NCBI GenBank assembly: GCA_001443395.1
Contig: LDXK01000001.1
Coordinates: 47,426 to 111,425 of the forward strand
Direction of reading: 5' to 3'
Source of the DNA: a candidate division WWE3 bacterium CSP1-7
GTDB lineage: Bacteria > Patescibacteriota > WWE3 > 9FT-COMBO-53-11
Length of the DNA stretch: 64,000 nucleotides
The notes under the pieces are model-generated. The model did no database searches and had not been told where the DNA came from. It saw only the letters and a program-made list of their open reading frames with translations. Shown here one piece after another: positions 3,002-55,306 of this stretch (positions are counted from its first letter, which is position 1; every line of letters begins with the position of its first letter). A program made the translations under genes and the position numbers.

Positions 3002-4392
3002 CCCACACTTCCTTCCATCTCCAACTCTATTAGTCGATTCAATTCCACCGCGTATTCCAGAGGCAGGACCTTGATGATTGGTTCGATGAAGCCGTTCACC
3101 ACCATCCCCACCGCTTCTTCGGCAGAGAGCCCCCGGCTCTGCAGATAGAAGAGCTGTTCCTCGCCCACCTTCGTCACCGTGGCTTCGTGCGCCACCGAAG
3201 ACTGCTTCTCGTTGATCTTCATCGTCGGGTAGGTATCGGAACGGGACTGGGGATCTAAAATTAAGGCATCGCACCGGACATTGGCGCGGGAACCAACCGC
3301 ACCGGGATTAATCTCCAGCAATCCCCGGTAACTGGTACGTCCCCCACCCCGGCTGATGGACTTAGAGGTGATGACGGAGGAGGTGTAAGGCGCGGCGTGG
3401 ATGGCCTTCGCGCCGGCGTCCTGGTGCTGACCGGAATCGGCATAGGCCAGGGACAGGACCTCTCCCCGCGCTCCCTTTCCCATCAGGTAGACCGAGGGAT
3501 ACTTCATCGTGACCTTGCTCCCCAGGTTACCGTCGATCCACTCCATCACTCCGTCCTCCCCCACCCAGGCCCGTTTGGTGACGAGGTTGTAGACGTTGCG
3601 GCTCCAGTTCTGGATGGTGGTGTAGCGGACCCTCGCTCCCCTCTTGACGATGATCTCCACCACCGCTGAGTGCAGGGAATCGGTCGAATAGACCGGAGCG
3701 GTGCACCCCTCGACGTAGTGGACGAAACTGCCTTCCTCCGCGATGATCAGCGTTCTCTCAAACTGTCCCATGCTGCGGGCGTTGATGCGGAAGTAGGCCT
3801 GGAGAGGGAGGGGAACTGAGACTCCCCGAGGCACGTAGACGAACGATCCCCCGCTCCAAACGGCGGAGTTAAGCGCTGCGAACTTGTTGTCCAGCGGAGG
3901 GATGAGTGTGCCAAAATACTCTCGGACCAGGTCGGGATGCTTCGAGAGCGCTTCGTCCATTCCCAGGAAAATGACCCCTAGCTTCTCCAAATCCTCCCGC
4001 AGGGTACCGTAGATAACCTCGCTGTCATACTGCGCTTTCAATCCCGCCAGGTACTTCCGCTCCGCCTGCGGGACACCGATCCGCTCATAGGTTTTGCGGA
4101 TCGAATCCGGAACCTGCTTCCAACTCTTTGCTTGTTTACCGGTGGGACGAAGATAATAGTAGAGGTCGTCGAATTTTATCCGAGAGAGGTTCGCACCCCA
4201 GCCGGGGAGGGATTTCTTCTCGAAAATGCCGAGAGAGCGGAGCCGAAAATCTCGCATCCAGGCTGGTTCTCCCTTAATCGCCGACATCTCCTCCACCACT
4301 CGGGAGGAGAGTCCCTTCTGGGCCTTAAAAGAGTGCTCCTCAGGATAGGAGAAACCGAAGCGATAGGGTCGGGTGGGTAAACTCTTGGTCAT
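2998..4392 (-). CDS. sufB: Fe-S cluster assembly protein SufB
   Basis: 464 aa with the 'EEQLFYLQSRGL' C-terminal signature and SufB-like central region. Lies between sufC and sufD. Confidence 0.9.
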   Translation of the reverse strand: MTKSLPTRPYRFGFSYPEEHSFKAQKGLSSRVVEEMSAIKGEPAWMRDFRLRSLGIFEKKSLPGWGANLSRIKFDDLYYYLRPTGKQAKSWKQVPDSIRKTYERIGVPQAERKYLAGLKAQYDSEVIYGTLREDLEKLGVIFLGMDEALSKHPDLVREYFGTLIPPLDNKFAALNSAVWSGGSFVYVPRGVSVPLPLQAYFRINARSMGQFERTLIIAEEGSFVHYVEGCTAPVYSTDSLHSAVVEIIVKRGARVRYTTIQNWSRNVYNLVTKRAWVGEDGVMEWIDGNLGSKVTMKYPSVYLMGKGARGEVLSLAYADSGQHQDAGAKAIHAAPYTSSVITSKSISRGGGRTSYRGLLEINPGAVGSRANVRCDALILDPQSRSDTYPTMKINEKQSSVAHEATVTKVGEEQLFYLQSRGLSAEEAVGMVVNGFIEPIIKVLPLEYAVELNRLIELEMEGSVG

Positions 4393-5099
4393 TTGAAAGA
4401 TTTGTAACCGTCTTTTTCCAACTTCTCCGCCAGTTCTTCTCCGCCGGTGGCGGCGATCCGGCCATCAATCAAAACGTGGACATAATTGGGGTTAAGGTAC
4501 CTGAGAATTCGCTGATAGTGCGTGATAATTAGAACCCCCGTCCCCGCCTCCGCCAAAAACCGAATGCTCGCCGCGATCATTTTCAGCGCGTCCACGTCCA
4601 AGCCGGAATCGATTTCGTCAAAGATAGCGAATTTCGGCCGCAGCGCCAACGCCTGCAGGACCTCACTGCGCTTCTTCTCGCCTCCGGAGAGATCGAGATT
4701 GACGGTTCGCCTCAGAAAACTCTCTTCTAATCCCACTCGAGGCATCGCCTCGTTCAAGCCCGCCAGAACATCCATCGCCGCCGTTCCCTTCTTCGCCGTT
4801 TTGATGAGGTTGAAGAGGGAAACTCCCTCAATTCCCACGGGGTATTGAAAGGCCAGAAAGAGACCGGCCCGGAAGCGTTTTTCGGGAGAAAGAGAGGAGA
4901 GATTCCGTTGACCCAAGAGGATCCGTCCCGATACCGAATAACCGGGATGCCCGGCCAGCGCCAGCGCCAGGGTTGATTTGCCGGAACCGTTTGGACCCAT
5001 CAGAGCGTGGATCTCGCCGGGGCGGATTACCAGATCCACTCCCTGCAGAACCCTTTTGCTGCCCACGGAAACTTTTAGGTTACGGACTTCTAATTTCAT
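4389..5099 (-). CDS. sufC: Fe-S assembly ATPase SufC (ABC-type ATPase)
   Basis: Walker A 'GPNGSGKSTL', ABC signature 'LSGGEKKR' and Walker B 'AIFDEIDSGLD'. Confidence 0.9.
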   Translation of the reverse strand: MKLEVRNLKVSVGSKRVLQGVDLVIRPGEIHALMGPNGSGKSTLALALAGHPGYSVSGRILLGQRNLSSLSPEKRFRAGLFLAFQYPVGIEGVSLFNLIKTAKKGTAAMDVLAGLNEAMPRVGLEESFLRRTVNLDLSGGEKKRSEVLQALALRPKFAIFDEIDSGLDVDALKMIAASIRFLAEAGTGVLIITHYQRILRYLNPNYVHVLIDGRIAATGGEELAEKLEKDGYKSFK

Positions 5100-44823: not shown

Positions 44824-45119
44824 TTTTCTTCAAAAAACTCAATCTTCCCCTCCGACAAAGTCACCAAGGCCTTTTTAACCGCACTCTGTTCCGCCCGCAC
44901 CGGTCGCTTTTTGGGTGTCCGCCAGCGAGTCTCTTTTCCGGGAGTGCGAATAATGGCGACCTTCGCCACTTTGGTTCCTTTGTGAAGAAGCTCGACCGCC
45001 GCGGCCACATCTTTCTTCGTGGCCTGAGGCGCAATCTCAAAAAGATATTTTCCCTGACGGGCCTGGGCGTAGCCCTTTTCCGAAACCACCGGCTTTTTTA
45101 AAACTTGATAGATGTTCAT
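44820..45119 (-). CDS. rplW: 50S ribosomal protein L23
   Basis: '[15 protein letters not shown]'. Confidence 0.85.
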   Translation of the reverse strand: MNIYQVLKKPVVSEKGYAQARQGKYLFEIAPQATKKDVAAAVELLHKGTKVAKVAIIRTPGKETRWRTPKKRPVRAEQSAVKKALVTLSEGKIEFFEEK

Positions 45120-45856
45120 CGCTTCTTGCTCTTTGTCTTTCGCTTAGGGCCAACCGTCTTTTTTACTACTTTCACTGGCTTTATCGCCTTTACCACTTTT
45201 ACCGTCTTTCTTTTCTCCGTCAATCTCTCCTTGAGCTTCCCAATGCTTTCCTGGAAAAAAACCAGATCGCCGGAGTTGAGAACCTCATAGGGATTCAGGT
45301 TCCCCACCAACTCCACCGTCGCGTCCGCCAGATTCCGGAAGGAACGGAAGACATTGGTATTCATTTCAGGAACGACCACCAAAGCTTTCCGAGTTTTGAG
45401 TTTCGCCAAAAGCTGTTGGGCAACGGCGGTTTTCGGCTCTTTGAAAACTGGGTCCACGACCACCCAAACCCTTTCCGCCGCCGCTTTGGCAGAGAGTGCC
45501 GACCGTAACGCCAAGTCCTTAACCTTTTTGGTCAGAAGCGCCTCAAAGGTGCGAGGCCGGGGACCAAAGGTTATCCCCCCGCCAACCCAAATCGGAGAAC
45601 GAACCGAACCGTGCCGCGCCCGCCCCGTGCCCTTCTGGGCCCAGGGTTTGCGTCCCCCACCGGAGACCTCACCCCGAGTCTTGGTGGCCACCGTTCCGGC
45701 CCGCTGGATGTTCCGATAGACGTGGATGTACTGACGCAGGACCGTGAGGTTTGGCTTCACTCCAAAGATATCCTCCGGCAGTTCAATCTTCTTTTCGGTT
45801 TTTACTCCCTTCGCGCTATAGATACTAACTTTCATGGTCTTTTCATGAAATTGCAA
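45116..45856 (-). CDS. rplD: 50S ribosomal protein L4 (K-rich C-terminal extension)
   Basis: '[19 protein letters not shown]'. Start possibly at MKVSIY (45835). Confidence 0.85.
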
Positions 45857-45880: not shown

Positions 45881-46411
45881 TCATTGTTTTTTCTCCTCTT
45901 CCTTAACTTCTTCCTTCGAACTCTCGGTTCCCGGCGCGGCTTTTTCCGCCGGCGGAATCTCGCTCTCCGTTACGGTCTCGCCGGGTTCGTAAAATATCGT
46001 TAGATTACTCAGCCGCGGGCCGGGAAGAGCTCCCGAGATCCTGGCGATTTTCTTCTCGGTATCCACCTCCACCACCGATAATCCCGGCACCGTCACCTGC
46101 TCCCCACCCATGCGGCCGGCCATCCGCTTGCCGCGATAGACTCGGCCGGGAGTGGTTGTGCCGCCGATCGAACCTGGAGCGCGCCCCTTGGTCGAGCGGC
46201 CGTGGGTTGCCGGCATTCCTGCAAAACCGTGGCGCTTCATCACTCCGGCAAAGCCCTTTCCCTTGGACGTTCCCACCACTCTAACGGGCGTCCCGGGGGT
46301 AAAATCGGCCGGAATCTCCGTCAGCGAAACCGCGGTCACAGGAACAACTCTCCCGTCGGGCGAGAAAACCTGACCCATATCCAATTTTCGAGCTTCGATT
46401 TTGTTAGTCAC
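45881..46411 (-). CDS. rplC: 50S ribosomal protein L3 (GTG start)
   Basis: '[21 protein letters not shown]'. GTG start abuts an upstream hairpin/U-tract. Confidence 0.85.
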
Positions 46412-48343: not shown

Positions 48344-50446
48344 TTACTCACGCTTCCCACCGGAAATGATTTTTGAGGCAACACTTTCCGGGACGCGTTC
48401 GTAATGAGATGGTTCAATGTTAAAAGTTCCTCTTCCCGATGTCAAGGAACGAATGGTAGTGGCGTAGCCAAAAATTTCGGCCAGCGGCACAATTGCTTTG
48501 ATGACCTGGGCATTGCCGCGCGAATCCGTTCCCTGGATCTGTGCCCGCCGGGAAGAGAGGTCCCCCATCGTTTCCCCCAGATATTGCTCGGGAATAATAA
48601 CTTCAATTTTCATAATCGGCTCGAGCAGGACCGGCTTCCCCCGCCGGCATCCCTCCCGGGTAGCTTCGGAGGCGGCAATCTGGAAGGCAATATCGGAGGA
48701 ATCCACCTCGTGAAAAGAACCATCGAACAGCGTCGCCCGCAGATCAATCATCGGATATCCGGCCAAAACTCCTTTGCCGAGAGCCTCTTTCACGCCTTTT
48801 TCGGAGGGCGGAATAAATTCGACCGGAATTGATCCACCCCGAATCGCATTCACAAATTCGAAACCGGATCCCGGGGGCAGCGGTTCGTACTTGAGGAAGA
48901 CATGCCCGTATTGCCCTCTCCCCCCCGACTGGCGAATGTACTTACCCTCCTGCTCAACCATGGCGGTGATCGTTTCCTTGTAGGCCACCTGGGGAGCGCC
49001 GACGTTTGCCTCGACCCCGAATTCCCGTTTCATTCGGTCAACCAGAATCTCCAGGTGAAACTCCCCCATTCCCGAGATGAGAGTTTCCCCGGTTTCGTGG
49101 TTGGACGAAATCTTGAAAGTCGGGTCTTCTTCCGCCAGTTTCTTCATCGCCTCTCCTAACTTCTCCTGGTCGGCCTTGGTCTTGGGTTCGATCATCACCG
49201 AAATCACCGGTTCGGGGAAGGAAATGTTTTCCAAAATTATCGGGGATTTTTCGTCCGAAAGACTGTCGCCGGTGGTGGTCTGCGCCAAACCAACCGCTGC
49301 GCCAATCTCTCCCGCCCCAATCTCGGGAATCTCTTCGCGAGAGTTGGCGTGCATCAGGAGAATGCGGCTGATTCTCTCCTTGACACCCTTGGTGGCATTA
49401 AGAACGTAGGAACCGGAAGAAATTTTGCCAGAATAAACTCGAAAGAAAGTTAATCGACCGACAAACGGATCGGTTTGAACTTTGAAGGCCAGCGCTGCGA
49501 ATGGTTCACTGGTGTCGGCTTTGTGGGTCGTTTTGTTTCCGGAAAAATCCAGCCCCTCCACCGCCGGCCGATCCAAAGGCGAGGGCAGGTAATCCACCAC
49601 CGCATCCAAAACTTTTTGCACTCCTTTGTTGTGCAGGGAGGATCCGCAGAGAACCGGAAAAACCTGACCGGTAAGGGTCGCCCGACGCAGGGCTTCTTTC
49701 AGCTCTTCATCCGAAATCTCCTGCCCCGCCAGATATTTTTCCAAGAGCTGCTCGTCCTCTTCGGCAATCGCTTCAATCGTTTTCGCCCGGTACTGGGCCA
49801 TCTTTTCTTTGAATTCCTCCGGCACCTCCTCCTCAATGACATCCTCCCCCAACTTCCCCTCGAAGCGGTAGGCTTTCTGCGCCAGGACGTCGATCATCCC
49901 GGAAAAATCACCTTCCCGGCCAATAGGAAAATTCAGGACAACCGTCTTGGCGTTTAGTTTCTCTTTGATGGAGGCAAGATCCTCATCAAAATCGGCCCCG
50001 ATCTTGTCCATCTTGTTGATAAAACAGATCCGCGGAATGTTGTACTTGTCGGCCTGCCGCCAAACTTTTTCGGATTGGGGCTCAACTCCTTCCTTTCCAT
50101 CAAAAACCACCACCGCCCCATCCAAGACTCGGAGGGAACGCTCCACCTCCGCCGTAAAATCGACATGGCCGGGAGTGTCGATAATGTTAATCCGGCAGTC
50201 CCGCCAAAAAGTGGTTGTGGCCGCGGCGGTAATCGTTACCCCCCGCTCCCGTTCCTGGACCATCCAGTCCATCACTGCCGCCCCCTCGTGGACCTCGCCG
50301 ATCTTATAGGTCCGACCGGTGTAATAGAGGAACCGCTCGGTTGTGGTCGTTTTACCCGCATCGATATGGGCGATGATCCCGATGTTTCGAACCTTATCGA
50401 GCGCCGCTTTGAATCCTATCTTATGTGAAAGTTTTTCTTCAACCAT
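48344..50446 (-). CDS. fusA: Elongation factor G
   Basis: '[14 protein letters not shown]' and the EF-G domains II-V. Start assigned to MVEEK at 50446, since the upstream in-frame ATG lies inside a repeat element. Confidence 0.9.
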
Positions 50447-50449
50447 GAT

Positions 50450-50480
50450 TTGGACGCGATTCTTTCGAATCGCTAACAAT
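50450..50480 (+). repeat. Structured intergenic repeat, copy K (in the divergent fusA / C39-like spacer, abutting the fusA ATG)
   Basis: TTGGACG + CGATTC-TTTC-GAATCG + CTAACAAT. Confidence 0.6.
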
Positions 50481-50579
50481 CTCATTCCATTCGATTGAAC
50501 GAATCATCTTACCAGAGCCAGGATAACGGAGCAACCGGCAAAATAGCAAACGACTAGACGCAGGATTTAAACTAAGAAG

Positions 50580-51488
50580 ATGATCTACACTCCCAAACGG
50601 CTCCAAAATCTCTATCTCTGGCAGGAGAAAAATCTGCGAATTGGTCGGGTCCTAAATCTTCCGAGCTATTCCGTTCGGAAAAAGAAATTTATTTCTTCAA
50701 AGGAGGGAAGAAAATTCTTAAGCTATCGCACCAAAAAAATCACCGACCTTAACGGCGTCGCCGTTTGGTTGGTAGACGGAATTGCGATCCGCAGCGGACT
50801 AAAAGCCGGTGATATTGATTTCACTATGGGCGGGCACGGCTATCGCTACCTTTACATCCCCGAAAAGGAAATCTGGATTGACAACGCCAACGCCCACCGC
50901 GGCGATCTTGAACCGGTCATCTGGCACGAGTACCTCGAACGCAAGCTAATGAAAGGGGGAATGGGTTATGACGGTGCCCACACCATCGCTTCGGACCTGG
51001 AAATTACTCTCCGCGAGGGAACTTATTTTGTTCTCCCGGTCGGCACCTTCCGCCAAACCGCCGGGTTCTGCGGCCCGGCCGCTCTAAAAATCGTCCTCAA
51101 TTACCACCAAATTCCTGCTACCGAAAAAAAGCTTTCCCAACTTTGCCGAACCACAAAAGCCGGCACCGATCCGCAAAATATTGTCGCCGCCGCCCAGAAA
51201 TTCGGACTCTCAGCTTATCAAAAAGAAAATATGACGGTCGAGGAAGTCAAGAAAATCATCAGAGGAGGAAATCCCGTCATCGCCAACTTTCAGCTCAAGC
51301 CGGAAAAGGGTGAAGGGCACTACGCCGTCATCGTGGGTTACAGTCGAAACACTTTTATCCTCTCCGATCCGCAGGAGGATCAGGGCTACCGCGAAGTTGG
51401 GATCAAAAATTTTATGAGTCTCTGGTACGAACTCGAAGACAAAACCGTTCGGCAAGGGATTGTGTTAAAACCACAAAAGGGATTGTAA
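50580..51488 (+). CDS. Fusion of a basic N-terminal region and an uncharacterised middle domain (GGHGY / WHEYxER motifs) to a C39-like papain-fold cysteine peptidase domain; paralog 1
   Basis: C-terminal half carries 'FCGPAAL' (Cys164), 'GHYAVIVGY' (His247) and 'ILSDPQEDQGY' (Asp263), matching the Peptidase_C39 / C39_2 catalytic motifs. No signal peptide. Confidence 0.6.
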   Translation: MIYTPKRLQNLYLWQEKNLRIGRVLNLPSYSVRKKKFISSKEGRKFLSYRTKKITDLNGVAVWLVDGIAIRSGLKAGDIDFTMGGHGYRYLYIPEKEIWIDNANAHRGDLEPVIWHEYLERKLMKGGMGYDGAHTIASDLEITLREGTYFVLPVGTFRQTAGFCGPAALKIVLNYHQIPATEKKLSQLCRTTKAGTDPQNIVAAAQKFGLSAYQKENMTVEEVKKIIRGGNPVIANFQLKPEKGEGHYAVIVGYSRNTFILSDPQEDQGYREVGIKNFMSLWYELEDKTVRQGIVLKPQKGL

Positions 51489-51539
51489 TTGGTGAAAAGT
51501 GAATTAAAATAAAGACAAAACCAAGATAAGGAGGGAGAG

Positions 51540-52562
51540 ATGGCGAAAAACGCTAGGGTCTTTCAGCCGCCGAGCCTTGCTGACCTTTATAGGAAGCATG
51601 AAAGCCTGCGAGTTTGGCGCGTCAAAAGCCTGAAGCGGCACCACGAGAAGAGCCGCCGCCTCCGTCAGCGCCGCAACTTCAAGCGCTATCGCATCCGGAT
51701 AATCGCCCGCCTACCGGGGGTAACCGTCTGGAGCATAGACGCGGATGCCCTTCGCGAAGGACTGGAAAAAGGCGATGTGGATTTCACGATGGGCGGGCAC
51801 GGATACACCCACCTCTATATCCCCCCAAATGAAATCTGGATCGCCAACGACCTACGGCGGCGTTCTGTCGTGCCGACAATCTGGCACGAATACTTTGAAC
51901 GGTTGCTGATGCGCGGGGGGATGCACTACAACACCGCCCACTCCCTCGCCTCTCGGCTGGAAATCACTCATCGGGAGGGAACCTACTTTGTTCTGCCGGT
52001 CGGAACTCATCACCAGAGAGAAGATGGCTTCTGCTTGCCGGCGACGCTCAAGATCTACCTAAGCTATCTGGGCCGGAACTTCTCCGAAGGACACCTTGCT
52101 CGGCTCTGCAAAACCACGGTCGAAAATGGCACCGATCCGATCAACGTCGTCACCGCGGTGCGCCGCCTTGGTTTCAGGGTCCAACATCGGGGCCGACCGC
52201 TGATGCTTCGGGAAATTCAGCGTTACTGCTCGGCCGCCGGAGCCAAGGGCAAGGAAAGGAAAGAGCTGACCAATCAAGTTCGCCGGCAAGCGGGCACCGT
52301 TCGGGTCCATCAAGCCTGGACCGCCGCGGAAGTCAAGAAGTCCCTCAAAAAGGGGCGGCCGGTCCTCGCCAACATCCAACTTAGCCGGGAGTACAAAAGC
52401 GGGCACTATCTAGTGGTCATCGGCTACACCAGCAACACCTTCGTCGTCAGTGACCCGAACGACGATAACGGTTACCGGGAAATCCCGATCCCCGAGTTCA
52501 TGAAGCTCTGGTATGAACTTGAGGACGGCACCGTTCGCGAAGGTTTTACAATCTCGTCTTAG
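51540..52562 (+). CDS. Paralog 2 of the middle-domain + C39-like peptidase fusion (Arg-rich N-terminus, internal insert)
   Basis: About 45% identical to paralog 1 by eye. Conserved 'DFTMGGHGY', 'IWHEYFER..LM.GGM', 'REGTYFVLPVGT', Cys in 'FCLPATL', 'GHYLVVIGY' and 'VVSDPNDDNGY'. Confidence 0.6.
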   Translation: MAKNARVFQPPSLADLYRKHESLRVWRVKSLKRHHEKSRRLRQRRNFKRYRIRIIARLPGVTVWSIDADALREGLEKGDVDFTMGGHGYTHLYIPPNEIWIANDLRRRSVVPTIWHEYFERLLMRGGMHYNTAHSLASRLEITHREGTYFVLPVGTHHQREDGFCLPATLKIYLSYLGRNFSEGHLARLCKTTVENGTDPINVVTAVRRLGFRVQHRGRPLMLREIQRYCSAAGAKGKERKELTNQVRRQAGTVRVHQAWTAAEVKKSLKKGRPVLANIQLSREYKSGHYLVVIGYTSNTFVVSDPNDDNGYREIPIPEFMKLWYELEDGTVREGFTISS

Positions 52563-52685: not shown

Positions 52686-52886
52686 ATGATGTTTTTTGGC
52701 AGTCTACTAATTCTGTTGGGAGGTTTTTGGCTCTTGAGCAACCTGGGAATAATCTCGGCCGAGTTCTGGCAGGTCTTTTGGCCCACGATTGTCATTCTCT
52801 TGGGAGTCAAACTCTTGTTCGGGCCCTCCAAGTGGAAGAAGTTTTGGACCCAATTCGAAGACGGGAAAAAAATTAAGATCGAATAG
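52686..52886 (+). CDS. Small two-TM membrane protein (LiaF-N/DUF5668-like)
   Basis: Strong SD 'GGGAGGTGA' 6 nt upstream. Two hydrophobic helices with an 'LSNLGII' motif. Confidence 0.5.
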   Translation: MMFFGSLLILLGGFWLLSNLGIISAEFWQVFWPTIVILLGVKLLFGPSKWKKFWTQFEDGKKIKIE

Positions 52887-52892
52887 CCTCGC

Positions 52893-53387
52893 TCAAGCCG
52901 CCGGGACTTTAAAGATCAGCCCCACCACATAGCCAATTAGGGCGGCGGCTATGCCGATCAACGTAATCTTTAATCCCTCGAGTCCGAGATTCAAACCGAT
53001 TACCCGGGCTTTGTAAATTCCGAGAAGAAAAAGAAAGATGGCCGAAATGAGAACGGCAACTTTTATCCCTAGAGAAATCGGAAAAAAAGCAAAAGGGAGA
53101 ATGGGAATTATCGAGCCAAAGATCGCGGAAACACCCACAATCAGCGCGTCGGTTAGCGCGTGAGATCCTGTCATCGAAGAGGTGTAGGCCACCGCGGCCA
53201 TCGAAAAAGATTCCGCAAAGGTCGCGGCTAATCCCGCCGCCAAGACGATTCGAGTATCTCCCGAAGCCGCCGCCACACCCAGGGTCACCCCCAAAACATT
53301 CACCAGTCCGTCCTGACCGCCGAGAATGATGTCCCGAAGATCGAGCTGGCGGTGTTTGAGTTCTCCCAAGCGGGAAATTTTAGTCAT
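52893..53387 (-). CDS. VIT1/CCC1-family (DUF125) membrane transporter, membrane domain only (putative Fe/Mn efflux)
   Basis: 'ILGGQDGLVNVLGVTLGVAAA' matches the VIT family signature. Five TM helices. Confidence 0.6.
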   Translation of the reverse strand: MTKISRLGELKHRQLDLRDIILGGQDGLVNVLGVTLGVAAASGDTRIVLAAGLAATFAESFSMAAVAYTSSMTGSHALTDALIVGVSAIFGSIIPILPFAFFPISLGIKVAVLISAIFLFLLGIYKARVIGLNLGLEGLKITLIGIAAALIGYVVGLIFKVPAA

Positions 53388-53884
53388 TTCAAGTTCCTCT
53401 CCCCCGCGGCGATCGGCACCTTCAGCCAGTTCTCCACCGGAGGCAGAGGACAGGAGTAGCCCGAGCTGTAGGCGCAGTAGGGGTTGTAGGCATAATTGAA
53501 ATCGAGCTCAAACTTCCCATCTTTCTCCTCTACCTCCAGGTAACGACCGGCGCCGTAGGTTTCTTTGCCTGAGGTCGCGTCGCGAAAGGGCAGGAAAAAA
53601 GAACCACTGGCAGCTTGGTAGAGGGTGATTTGAACCGGCTGGCCCTCGACCGAAAAACCAAGTTTCCCAATCCGCTTGAAGATCTTTTTCTCCCCGGAGG
53701 AAGTTTCAAATTCGAGCTCCTCTTCCGGAACTCGGGCCAGCGGAACGAGAAAACGCAGTTTCGGATCATCCGGAAAATATTTCAAACCCGCAAAGGAAGT
53801 CCGTTCCTCGACCGGAATTGGCGATTCGGTCCCGGTTTTTAAAAATTCGTCTTTGCGTTTGCGAAATTCCAACAGACTTTCCAT
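53384..53884 (-). CDS. DUF1684-family protein
   Basis: 'FRDATSGKETYGAGRYLEV' and 'NPYCAY' motifs resemble DUF1684. Confidence 0.55.
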   Translation of the reverse strand: MESLLEFRKRKDEFLKTGTESPIPVEERTSFAGLKYFPDDPKLRFLVPLARVPEEELEFETSSGEKKIFKRIGKLGFSVEGQPVQITLYQAASGSFFLPFRDATSGKETYGAGRYLEVEEKDGKFELDFNYAYNPYCAYSSGYSCPLPPVENWLKVPIAAGERNLK

Positions 53885-53925
53885 ATCCTAACTCTAGCAA
53901 AGCCAAAGATAGGTTGGGTGATAGA

Positions 53926-54291
53926 ATGACCCTTGTGATTAGCTTTATTCGCCTCGCAAAATCCTTCCGCCACGCCTGGCGCGGACTCGTTCACACGCTA
54001 TTTTTCCATCAGAATCTGAGAATTCACTTGGTGGCGGCGGTTATCACCGCCGCACTCGGACTCTATTTTCAGATATCTTCCCGAGAGTGGTTTGGCATTC
54101 TGGTTGCCATCTTCTTGGTCCTGGTGGCGGAGATGATCAACACCTCTTTGGAGGAGATAATCAACCTAGTGAGAGAGGATCACCACGAAAAAGCCCGCAT
54201 TGCCAAGGACGTCTCGGCGGGAATGGTGCTTTTGGCGACGATCTTTGCCGTCCTAGTGGGATTGGCTGTCTTTCTACCCCGAGTATTCTAA
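53926..54291 (+). CDS. dgkA: Diacylglycerol kinase / undecaprenol kinase (DgkA family)
   Basis: Three TM helices and a 'VLVAEMINTSLEEIINLV...AKDVSAGMVL' DgkA signature. Start assigned to MTLVIS. Confidence 0.7.
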   Translation: MTLVISFIRLAKSFRHAWRGLVHTLFFHQNLRIHLVAAVITAALGLYFQISSREWFGILVAIFLVLVAEMINTSLEEIINLVREDHHEKARIAKDVSAGMVLLATIFAVLVGLAVFLPRVF

Positions 54292-54357: not shown

Positions 54358-54846
54358 TCACCAGCGGAAATGGGCAAAGGCGCGGTTGGCGTCGGCGATC
54401 CGGTGAACTTCCTCCTTCTTCTTGACGGCCGCTCCTTCGTTGTTGTAGGCCGCCGTTAACTCCTGAGCCAGCCGCTCCGCCAACGGGCTGCCCTTTTTGC
54501 TCCGGGCGGAGTTTACGAGCCAACGAATGGCGAGCGCCTGCGCCCGTTCCGTCCGAACCTGAGTGGGAACCTGGTAGGTTGCTCCCCCCACCCGGCGGGA
54601 ACGAACCTCCAACTGCGGAGTAACGTTGGTCACCGCCTGGGTCAGAACCAGAAGCGGCTCGGCCCCCAGAGCCTGCGCCGCCTTGTCCATCGCTTGGTAG
54701 ACCGCGGCCTGGGCCGTGGCCTTTCGGCCGCTCAACATAATTTGGTTGGTGAATTTTGCCACAACCGTGGAACCAAAGCGGTAATCCGATTCCAGCTGTC
54801 TTTTTCGGACCGGGCCTCCTCTAGGCATTTGCTTCTCCTTCCGCAC
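54358..54846 (-). CDS. rpsG: 30S ribosomal protein S7
   Basis: '[35 protein letters not shown]'. Start may be at MPRGG (54828). Confidence 0.9.
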
Positions 54847-55306
54847 TCGCTGCTACCGGCTCGGGTGCCGCAGTCGCCGGCTGCGGTCGACTTCCTTCTG
54901 CGACCCTCTTGGCCCCATAGATGGAGCGGCTGGTCCGACGGCCTTCCACCCCCGCCGTGTCAAAAACACCCCGGACAATCGTGTACTTGATTCCCGGCAA
55001 ATCCTTGACCTTCCCGCCCCGCACCATCACGATCGAGTGTTCCGCCAGATTGTGGCCCTCACCGGGGATATAGGACGTGACTTCCCGCCCATTCGAGAGG
55101 CGAACCCGCGCCACCTTGCGAAGCGCAGAATTAGGTTTCTTGGGAGTCATCGTCCTCACCTGCAAAACCACCGCTCTCTTAAAAGGAGAGTTCGCGACCT
55201 TCTTGCGCCGGCGGAGCGAGGAATAGATCTCCGCCAGAGCCGGGGCTTTGGTTTTGTGGGCAATCTTTTTTCTCCCCTTTTTGATGAGCTGTTGAACCGT
55301 TGGCAT
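54821..55306 (-). CDS. rpsL: 30S ribosomal protein S12 with a ~35-aa C-terminal extension
   Basis: '[34 protein letters not shown]' core, then an Ala/Pro/Glu-rich tail. Confidence 0.9.

Follow-up and report, generated by a model that had tools for sequence, protein, structure and literature searches.

The 64,000-nucleotide (nt) stretch of DNA analysed here (the window), which belongs to contig LDXK01000001.1 of the candidate division WWE3 bacterium CSP1-7, carries two adjacent plus-strand genes. Their products, paralog 1 and paralog 2, share a three-part architecture consisting of a basic N-terminal extension, a conserved middle domain, designated the HE-domain in the following, and a C39-type cysteine peptidase domain (Table 1). 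An initial annotation, made from the letters of the DNA and its open reading frames (ORFs), had described the two genes as tandem paralogs. This description was borne out by an end-to-end alignment of the two proteins with 44% identity (E 9e-97). Only 51 nt separate the two ORFs, and a strong AAGGAGG ribosome-binding site precedes paralog 2. Besides cluster P0001, which is 100% identical to it, paralog 1 retrieved 72 other homolog clusters in a homology search. The window is a typical chromosome segment of the Patescibacteria (candidate phyla radiation, CPR), and its nearest public relatives are metagenome-assembled genomes (MAGs) of candidate division WWE3.

Table 1. Coordinates of the genes, domains and key codons in the window, and of selected genes at related loci (locus handle before the coordinates; aa, amino acids; pI, isoelectric point)
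Feature	Position	Strand	Size or residues	Remarks
Paralog 1	50580..51488	+	302 aa	ORF
N-terminal basic extension, paralog 1	50580..50726	+	1-49	pI 10.6; three short helices (predicted)
HE-domain, paralog 1	50727..51026	+	50-149	beta-hairpin, two more strands, two helices; H86 on strand
Codon H86, paralog 1	50835-50837	+		
Codons H116-E120, paralog 1	50925-50939	+		
Codon H134, paralog 1	50979-50981	+		
Codon E141, paralog 1	51000-51002	+		
C39 papain-fold peptidase domain, paralog 1	51027..51485	+	150-302	FRQ159, FC164GPAAL, GH247YAVIVGY, LSD263P
Paralog 2	51540..52562	+	340 aa	ORF
HE-domain, paralog 2	51690..51989	+	51-150	H87, H116, E117, E120, H134, E141
C39 domain, paralog 2	51990..52559	+	151-340	Q159, FC165LPATL, GH289Y, VSD305P
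Basic insert, paralog 2	52185..52310	+	216-257 (42 aa)	pI 11.6; defines the 'long' paralog type
LiaI/LiaF-TM two-helix membrane miniprotein	52686..52886	+	66 aa	Pfam PF18917, 2e-11; directly 3' of paralog 2
DUF1684 gene	53384-53884	-		
DAGK, longest ORF	53818-54291	+	157 aa	
rpsL (S12)	54821-55306	-	161 aa	
fusA, longest ORF	48344-50485	-	713 aa	
rplC (L3)	45881-46411	-	176 aa	
rplD (L4)	45116-45856	-	246 aa	
ABC-type ORF	4389-5099			
Acidic protein beside peptidase gene(s)	L001 10976-11257		74-93 aa	
Acidic protein beside peptidase gene(s)	L006 7708-7968		74-93 aa	
Acidic protein beside peptidase gene(s)	L009 7985-8209		74-93 aa	
AstE/AspA-type deacylase domain	L005 6946-7965			
AstE/AspA-type deacylase domain	L011 10527-10939			

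Judged by its sequence, the C-terminal half of each protein is a cysteine peptidase of the C39 type (papain fold, double-glycine-peptidase-like) with an intact set of catalytic residues. Paralog 1 scored 61.8 bits against Peptidase_C39 and 60.8 bits against C39_2, and the values for paralog 2 were 38.0 and 52.7 bits, respectively. Both proteins thus lie above both Pfam gathering thresholds (22 bits for PF03412 and 24 bits for PF13529). The catalytic pattern previously noted in this half was found at the expected positions, and paralog 2 retains all four catalytic residues. Gln159, Cys164, His247, and Asp263 of paralog 1 align to the catalytic residues of ComA (motifs CGPAVL, HYYVV, and GDP). 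Among 60 homologs, the Cys and the His are invariant, and the Gln and the Asp are at least 90% conserved. The papain-like fold is superposable on solved C39 domains. In the AF2 model of paralog 1 (pLDDT 95.6, pTM 0.91), the C39 domain is predicted to be packed rigidly against the N-terminal HE-domain. The C39 half is an additional member of the known family C39 (Pfam PF03412/PF13529, clan CA). Its best NCBIfam match was the PA2778-family cysteine peptidase model NF033920 (E 6.7e-13), but with 48.6 bits against a curated cut-off of 150 the WWE3 protein is not a member of that family. LahT150, PCAT1, and ComA (PDB 6mpz, 8vp3/4ry2, 5xe8/3k8u) were the best structural and sequence matches, at 22-27% identity. 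Unlike these domains, the C39 half of the WWE3 proteins bears a family-specific W-Y-E-L-E-D...G motif in its C-terminal part and is always paired with an HE-domain.

The HE-domain had been regarded as conserved but not assignable to any described family. Our searches led to the same result, as no well-characterised family was matched in Pfam (even at E<10), NCBIfam, or the PDB; NCBIfam returned only sub-threshold matches to the C39 half. The PADLOC models of anti-phage defence gave no matches, and a plasmid collection contained no match to the two-copy form of the HE-domain protein described below. As far as searched, neither the HE-domain nor its pairing with C39 is described in Pfam, NCBIfam, PADLOC, or the PDB. 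An exhaustive profile search nevertheless retrieved at least 2366 family representatives at 50% identity with E<1e-3, and 1642 of these lay below 1e-10.

Two tandem copies of the HE-domain are present in 132 of the best 146 family members, usually in a protein of ~210 aa, and a comparison of the copies points to the residues that matter. Six residues of the domain are conserved, namely H86, H116, E117, E120, H134, and E141; the two helices of paralog 1 bear H116-E117-x-x-E120 followed by H134...E141. In second copies and single-copy forms, H116 is conserved to 96%, E117 to 97-99%, E120 to 100%, and both H134 and E141 to 93-96%. The first copies keep E120 (81%) and E141 (82%) and, less strictly, H116 (59%), whereas H134 is down to 9% and E117 to 0%, being replaced by L, M, or A. 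The scaffold residues R71, F81, P94, E97, and W99 are retained in the first copy. Because E117 and H134 are lost from the first copy and near-invariant in the intact copies, we infer a function for these two residues as well as for H116 and probably H86. An intact domain beside a degenerate duplicate that lacks exactly two polar residues usually marks an enzyme active site. Two further observations concern individual family members. A Pfam match to ATLF was considered as a clue to the identity of the HE-domain and rejected, as it falls in a separate N-terminal region of P0111. In P0164 (677 aa), an intein with a LAGLIDADG homing endonuclease (residues 71-483) interrupts the first HE-domain copy; inteins tend to occupy conserved positions of phage or replication proteins with important roles.

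A zincin-like nature of the HE-domain had been proposed initially on the basis of its HE motif. The only family matched repeatedly was the PHROG 'metallo-protease' family phrog_87, which was hit by 13 of 146 full proteins (best E 3.9e-5) and 8 of 44 domain-only sequences (best E 7e-5); these matches are weak and sub-threshold. The 50 BFVD matches listed, weak with few exceptions, included IrrE- and SprT-like proteins. The secondary-structure elements of the HE-domain occur in the order sheet, HE helix, and then a helix with His/Glu, on which H134 and E141 sit, and this order matches that of the zincin core as summarised in PMC5512222. Together, the weak phrog_87 matches, the secondary-structure order, and the HExxE...H...E motif suggested a zincin-like ancestry. 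A divergent zincin-like metallohydrolase would be the most likely reading of the domain, yet it is not established, and the original proposal stays at the level of a suggestion.

The HE-domain and the C39 domain are physically linked well beyond WWE3. When one genome was scanned for each GTDB species, 76 loci with an HE-domain were obtained. Patescibacteria and DPANN archaea (Woesearchaeota, Nanoarchaeota, Aenigmatarchaeota) account for almost all of these loci, and with few exceptions the titles of the genomes mark them as MAGs. This and the other collection scans used short peptide patterns, so that the counts are lower bounds and biased to the query subfamily. When the 76 loci were searched with local hidden Markov models (HMMs) for the HE-domain and the C39 half, using stop-to-stop ORFs, 79 HE-domain ORFs were obtained. 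Fusions to C39 occurred in 25 of them in four orders: extension-HE-C39 (16 ORFs), HE-C39 (five), HE-HE-C39 (three), and C39-HE-HE (one). A further 27 ORFs contained the HE-domain only and were followed, on the same strand and within ~125 nt, by the start of a C39 domain, and the remaining 27 HE-only ORFs had no C39 domain linked in this way. In total, 52 of the 79 HE-domain ORFs were thus linked to C39, and the two-gene operon form was seen more often than the fusion. The operon consists of an HE-domain gene with two copies and, closely spaced behind it, a C39 gene. Ten junctions of the two-gene form were inspected. Most C39 start codons lay 2-18 nt past the stop codon of the HE gene or overlapped its end, and the separate C39 genes, encoding ~150-200 aa, began at the '..PFRQ.PG.CGPASLK' catalytic segment without a leader sequence. 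The separate partners retain the Gln, Cys, His, and Asp, and all five C39 partners or fusions scanned from the GTDB loci passed the Pfam C39 threshold. The view that soluble C39 proteins are in themselves unusual was not upheld, as the separate partners of ~150 aa reach the Pfam C39 thresholds without any other domain. The initial annotation had also proposed to search for the middle domain in other genomes. The outcome was a large family in huge phages, CPR bacteria, and DPANN archaea, in which the fusion to C39 is a recurrent pairing and not an oddity. Linkage in 52 of 79 cases and in several arrangements is therefore strong evidence that the HE-domain and C39 work together, and the WWE3 genes are the fused form of a general HE-domain and C39 module. 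An AstE/AspA-type (M14-like) deacylase domain was observed three times near or fused to HE-domain proteins (Table 1): it adjoins P0071 upstream, lies ~4.5 kb from P0029, and is fused in P0087.

HE-domains are also widespread in viral sequences. At least 144 IMG/VR contigs, many of them 150-424 kb long, carry the domain, and the ORFs that contain it reach 2668 aa (L043). Among cultured or GenBank phages, only four records matched, representing three copies of the Manatee Spring podovirus and the jumbo phage Rctr197k. A 42-kb podovirus encodes a single-domain HE-domain protein of 122 aa between its portal and scaffold/capsid genes. A 424-kb IMG/VR contig encodes an HE-then-C39 fusion that is 31% identical to residues 57-300 of paralog 1 (E 7e-34). 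The HE-domain was found fused with topoisomerase IB three times, being located directly upstream of it, and with NUDIX four times. Further fusion partners were PI3/4-kinase-like, GNAT, ART-PolyVal, SET, KTSC, 2H phosphoesterase, Sua5, AstE/AspA, anthrax-LF-like zincin, and InPase domains. Relatives of the domain occur in the polyvalent proteins P0102, which shows the order GNAT-ART-C39-HE-HE, P0159, L043, and Rctr197k_173 (2039 aa, with InPase and 2H). The phage HE-domain proteins show the polyvalent-protein pattern described by Iyer et al. (2017; PMC5512222), to which the window proteins do not conform, having two domains and a conserved chromosomal context. Zincin peptidases (MPTase) are a known hub domain of polyvalent proteins (PMC5512222), and the HE-domain is likewise small and scattered among the diverse enzymatic domains of giant phage proteins; unlike the MPTases, it typically occurs as a tandem of an active-looking and a degenerate copy. 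In the phage-like contigs L007 and L008, genes for Tpt1/KptA, a zeta-toxin/AAA_33 kinase, Ro60/TROVE, PTH2, an ADP-ribosyl glycohydrolase, and UDG lie near those of HE-domain proteins. Such RNA/NAD-related neighbourhoods resemble the counter-defence regions expected in jumbo phages.

The hub-like placement beside the unrelated TopoIB, NUDIX, kinase, and GNAT domains would also fit a protein in which only the C39 domain is catalytic. In that case, the HE-domain would be an adaptor, an allosteric regulator, an inhibitor, or a structural metal-binding module that is reused beside many enzymes in phage polyvalent proteins. No enzyme matches the domain significantly in fold or sequence, and E120, E141, R71, and E97 are kept in both copies, suggesting structural salt bridges. 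However, the selective loss of E117 and H134 from the first copy and their near-invariance elsewhere are a classic sign of an active domain beside a degenerate duplicate, and the domain-only sequences repeatedly match a phage metalloprotease family. Moreover, the hub domain known from polyvalent proteins is a zincin peptidase (PMC5512222). We consider a non-enzymatic HE-domain improbable, but it is the alternative that has to be taken most seriously.

The N-terminal basic extension is specific to WWE3-type proteins, and its extremely basic character, which had been noticed before, was confirmed by the pI, which is 10.6 for residues 1-49 of paralog 1 and 11.9 for residues 1-50 of paralog 2. The net charge amounts to +13 for paralog 1 and +25 for paralog 2. 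An origin of the extension as a relic of a lost first HE-domain copy was rejected, as an HMM of the extension gave a best E of 0.16 against two-copy proteins. Paralog 2 carries in addition a highly basic insert, the length of which is 42 aa rather than the ~30 aa assumed initially. The same insert is found in homologs of ~336-348 aa from other WWE3 genomes, and in several of these genomes the 'long' and 'short' types co-occur, as seen from paired homolog clusters that agree in the length of their longest contig. Hence, the duplication is old, and the two copies are both maintained. In agreement with the earlier assignment, neither a signal peptide nor a transmembrane (TM) helix is evident in either paralog, the maximal Kyte-Doolittle hydropathy over 19 residues being ~1.0. 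Both paralogs are probably cytoplasmic.

This localisation bears on the question of whether the proteins might be cell-wall or envelope hydrolases (endolysins or autolysins), the C39-like domain of which would cut a peptide stem or cross-link in the manner of PeiR/PeiW, with the HE-domain acting as a second amidase or peptidase. The PHROG 'endolysin' families 6007 and 10051 were matched at E 4.8e-7 and 1.4e-6, a two-helix membrane miniprotein is encoded directly 3' of paralog 2, one homolog follows a glycosyltransferase cluster, and the module occurs in phages. Against this stand the fused and standalone forms themselves, which have no signal peptide, TM helix, or recognisable wall-binding domain; for either paralog, Pfam matched C39-type and related peptidase models and nothing else, and the resemblance to wall peptidases is limited to the catalytic domain. 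The genes lie in housekeeping contexts and not beside lysis genes. Furthermore, the match to the pseudomurein endoisopeptidase PeiR (C71; PDB 8z4h) scored below those to bacteriocin-type peptidase domains. Pei enzymes presumably contain pseudomurein-binding repeats, which were not seen in the WWE3 proteins, and we take them to act on pseudomurein, whereas the window organism is a bacterium and hence presumably has murein. A role in cell-wall hydrolysis thus appears unlikely.

The similarity to LahT150, PCAT1, and ComA raises a different option, a standalone double-glycine leader peptidase that, like LahT150, matures a ribosomally synthesised peptide or bacteriocin in the cytoplasm. A candidate partner is an acidic protein of 74-93 aa, the gene of which directly adjoins the peptidase gene(s) in three of the four WWE3 lineages (Table 1). 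It has no Pfam, NCBIfam, or PADLOC match and is characterised by the motifs FLKxQG(I/F)SxAAxxE(L/F)LKG and VYKDGxxxxIxP. The leader consensus of class II bacteriocins is LSxxELxxIxGG, which the stretch ISEAAIAELLKG of the acidic protein loosely resembles. The protein lacks, however, the Gly-Gly pair and is absent from the window. The initial annotation had suggested to look for double-glycine leaders nearby; none was found in the window, in which a six-frame motif scan gave only chance matches inside other ORFs. As noted before, no ABC exporter is attached to the two proteins, which lack a TM segment, and the window contains neither a PCAT-type exporter nor a modification enzyme. One ABC-type ORF (Table 1) is not of the PCAT type; going by the ORF list, it resembles a SufC-type ATPase. 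Across the 76 loci, no third gene family and no exporter recurs with the module. Maturation of a leader peptide is therefore a very unlikely function, and the WWE3 proteins differ from the PCAT/LahT150 systems in having neither an attached ABC transporter nor a double-glycine precursor nearby. The acidic protein could, independently of this function, be a substrate, partner, or inhibitor of the module.

The genomic site of the paralogs had been described as an insertion in the str operon. The minus strand of the window carries rpoB-rpoC-rpsL-rpsG and, further along, fusA-tuf-rpsJ-rplC, and the paralog pair is indeed divergent from fusA and located between rpsL-rpsG and fusA-tuf. The term insertion is, however, overstated, as the arrangement is conserved vertically in WWE3: four lineages of this division, represented by the window, L001-L003, L006, and L009, share the rpsG-fusA site. 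The gap comprises six genes, namely the two paralogs (+), a DAGK-type kinase (+), DUF1684 (-), VIT1 (-), and the LiaF-TM miniprotein (+), so that four unrelated genes share it with the pair. The miniprotein has an equivalent position in L001 and L009 and is a conserved neighbour at the WWE3 locus. In other Patescibacteria, the homologs are located elsewhere, after glycosyltransferases, after an AstE/AspA-like gene, near defence-like genes, or amid housekeeping genes.

The constancy of this site in WWE3 would fit a ribosome- or translation-associated processing protease, following the logic of Prp, the L27-processing cysteine protease encoded in a ribosomal-protein operon, with basic parts that recruit it to rRNA. 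The net charges, the basic extension, and the basic insert would suit such a role. In addition, the N-terminal region (50580-50860; profile positions 43-104) gave weak matches to archaeal ribosomal protein L19e in a comparison of the profile with the PDB (E 0.02 and 0.43), in which the aligned residues include W, ALR, and H-YR-LYI. We rejected this match, which probably reflects composition or chance, because the matched stretch is predicted to be beta-strand; L19e is presumably helical. The paralogs are, moreover, divergent from fusA and share the gap with unrelated genes. Because the non-WWE3 homologs and the two-gene form occupy other, unrelated contexts, the ribosomal neighbourhood is a lineage feature and weak evidence for function. 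We give a ribosome-associated role hardly any credence.

The explanation that we prefer, and in which our confidence is about even, is that the C39 peptidase and a probably metal-dependent HE-domain form a bipartite intracellular protease that was fused, duplicated, and fixed beside fusA in WWE3. The product of each gene would then be a hydrolase of two parts, soluble, strongly basic, and located in the cytoplasm. Its HE-domain would depend on a metal for hydrolysis and probably be a zincin-like peptidase of divergent sequence, with H116, H134, and possibly H86, E120, or E141 as metal ligands and E117 as the general base. A catalytic role is assumed because the degenerate first copy of the two-copy proteins has lost precisely E117 and H134. 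Both domains may act jointly on a protein or peptide substrate. In the WWE3 lineage, the pair would have been fused, extended by the basic N-terminus, duplicated into a short and a long form, and fixed at its site near fusA. To judge from the basic surfaces, the target may be acidic or associated with nucleic acids, and the small acidic protein of the related WWE3 genomes is one candidate.

Several results weigh against this explanation. The acidic protein proposed as a target is absent from the window, where tblastn found nothing below E 0.8. In place of HExxH, the defining motif of zincins, the HE-domain contains H116-E117-x-x-E120 with a fully conserved E120; no zincin structure scored above noise against it, no Pfam zincin model matched it, and its profile found no sequence in the PDB. 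Because the degenerate first copy retains E120 and E141 as well, these two may be structural residues rather than metal ligands. Only one C39 match was obtained among the 80 IMG/VR loci kept, and the pairing is therefore a feature of cellular (MAG) genomes and not universal. Finally, MAG bins can contain misplaced phage contigs.

On the basis of the bipartite protease, a broader proposal can be made, which we put forward tentatively and with less confidence. The HE-domain may represent a family of minimal peptidases or hydrolases (H...HExxE...H...E) that depend on a metal, a family which has so far gone unrecognised and serves as a hub or processing domain in the polyvalent proteins of huge phages and, together with a C39 protein of ~150 aa, forms an obligate two-protease module characteristic of CPR and DPANN organisms. 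If the HE-domain is indeed a new minimal metalloprotease, an unrecognised peptidase family would be added to the set of phage polyvalent protein domains. If the module combines a minimal metal-dependent hydrolase with C39, it would be machinery common to ultra-small episymbionts and their viruses, which in WWE3 is fused, duplicated, and anchored beside translation-factor genes. A large part of microbial diversity belongs to the CPR bacteria and DPANN archaea, the lineage-specific genes of which mostly lack a functional assignment. The sequences outline a compact two-component module, largely confined to ultra-small organisms and huge phages, with apparent catalytic signatures in both halves. 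C164, H247, E117, and H134 are the residues of interest to experimentalists, and a domain with more than 2000 representatives is available to family curators. Even an ordinary housekeeping peptidase would provide a useful annotation for several thousand 'hypothetical proteins'.

Some minor observations were made on the surrounding genes (Table 1). The longest fusA ORF extends 12-17 codons beyond the called genes of relatives (696-701 aa). If the true start is internal, the divergent intergenic region between fusA and paralog 1 measures ~130-145 nt instead of 94 nt. The longest DAGK ORF overlaps the DUF1684 gene by 67 nt, and the DAGK genes of relatives encode 79-119 aa, so that the true start is probably an internal Met. 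The S12 protein encoded by rpsL has an Ala/Pro-rich C-terminal tail of ~30 residues, and S12 proteins of 161-164 aa are also present in L006 and L009. The L4 protein has a Lys-rich C-terminal extension, and the short L3 protein ends in an acidic/Lys tail; these features of L4 and L3 may be CPR-specific variations of ribosomal proteins.

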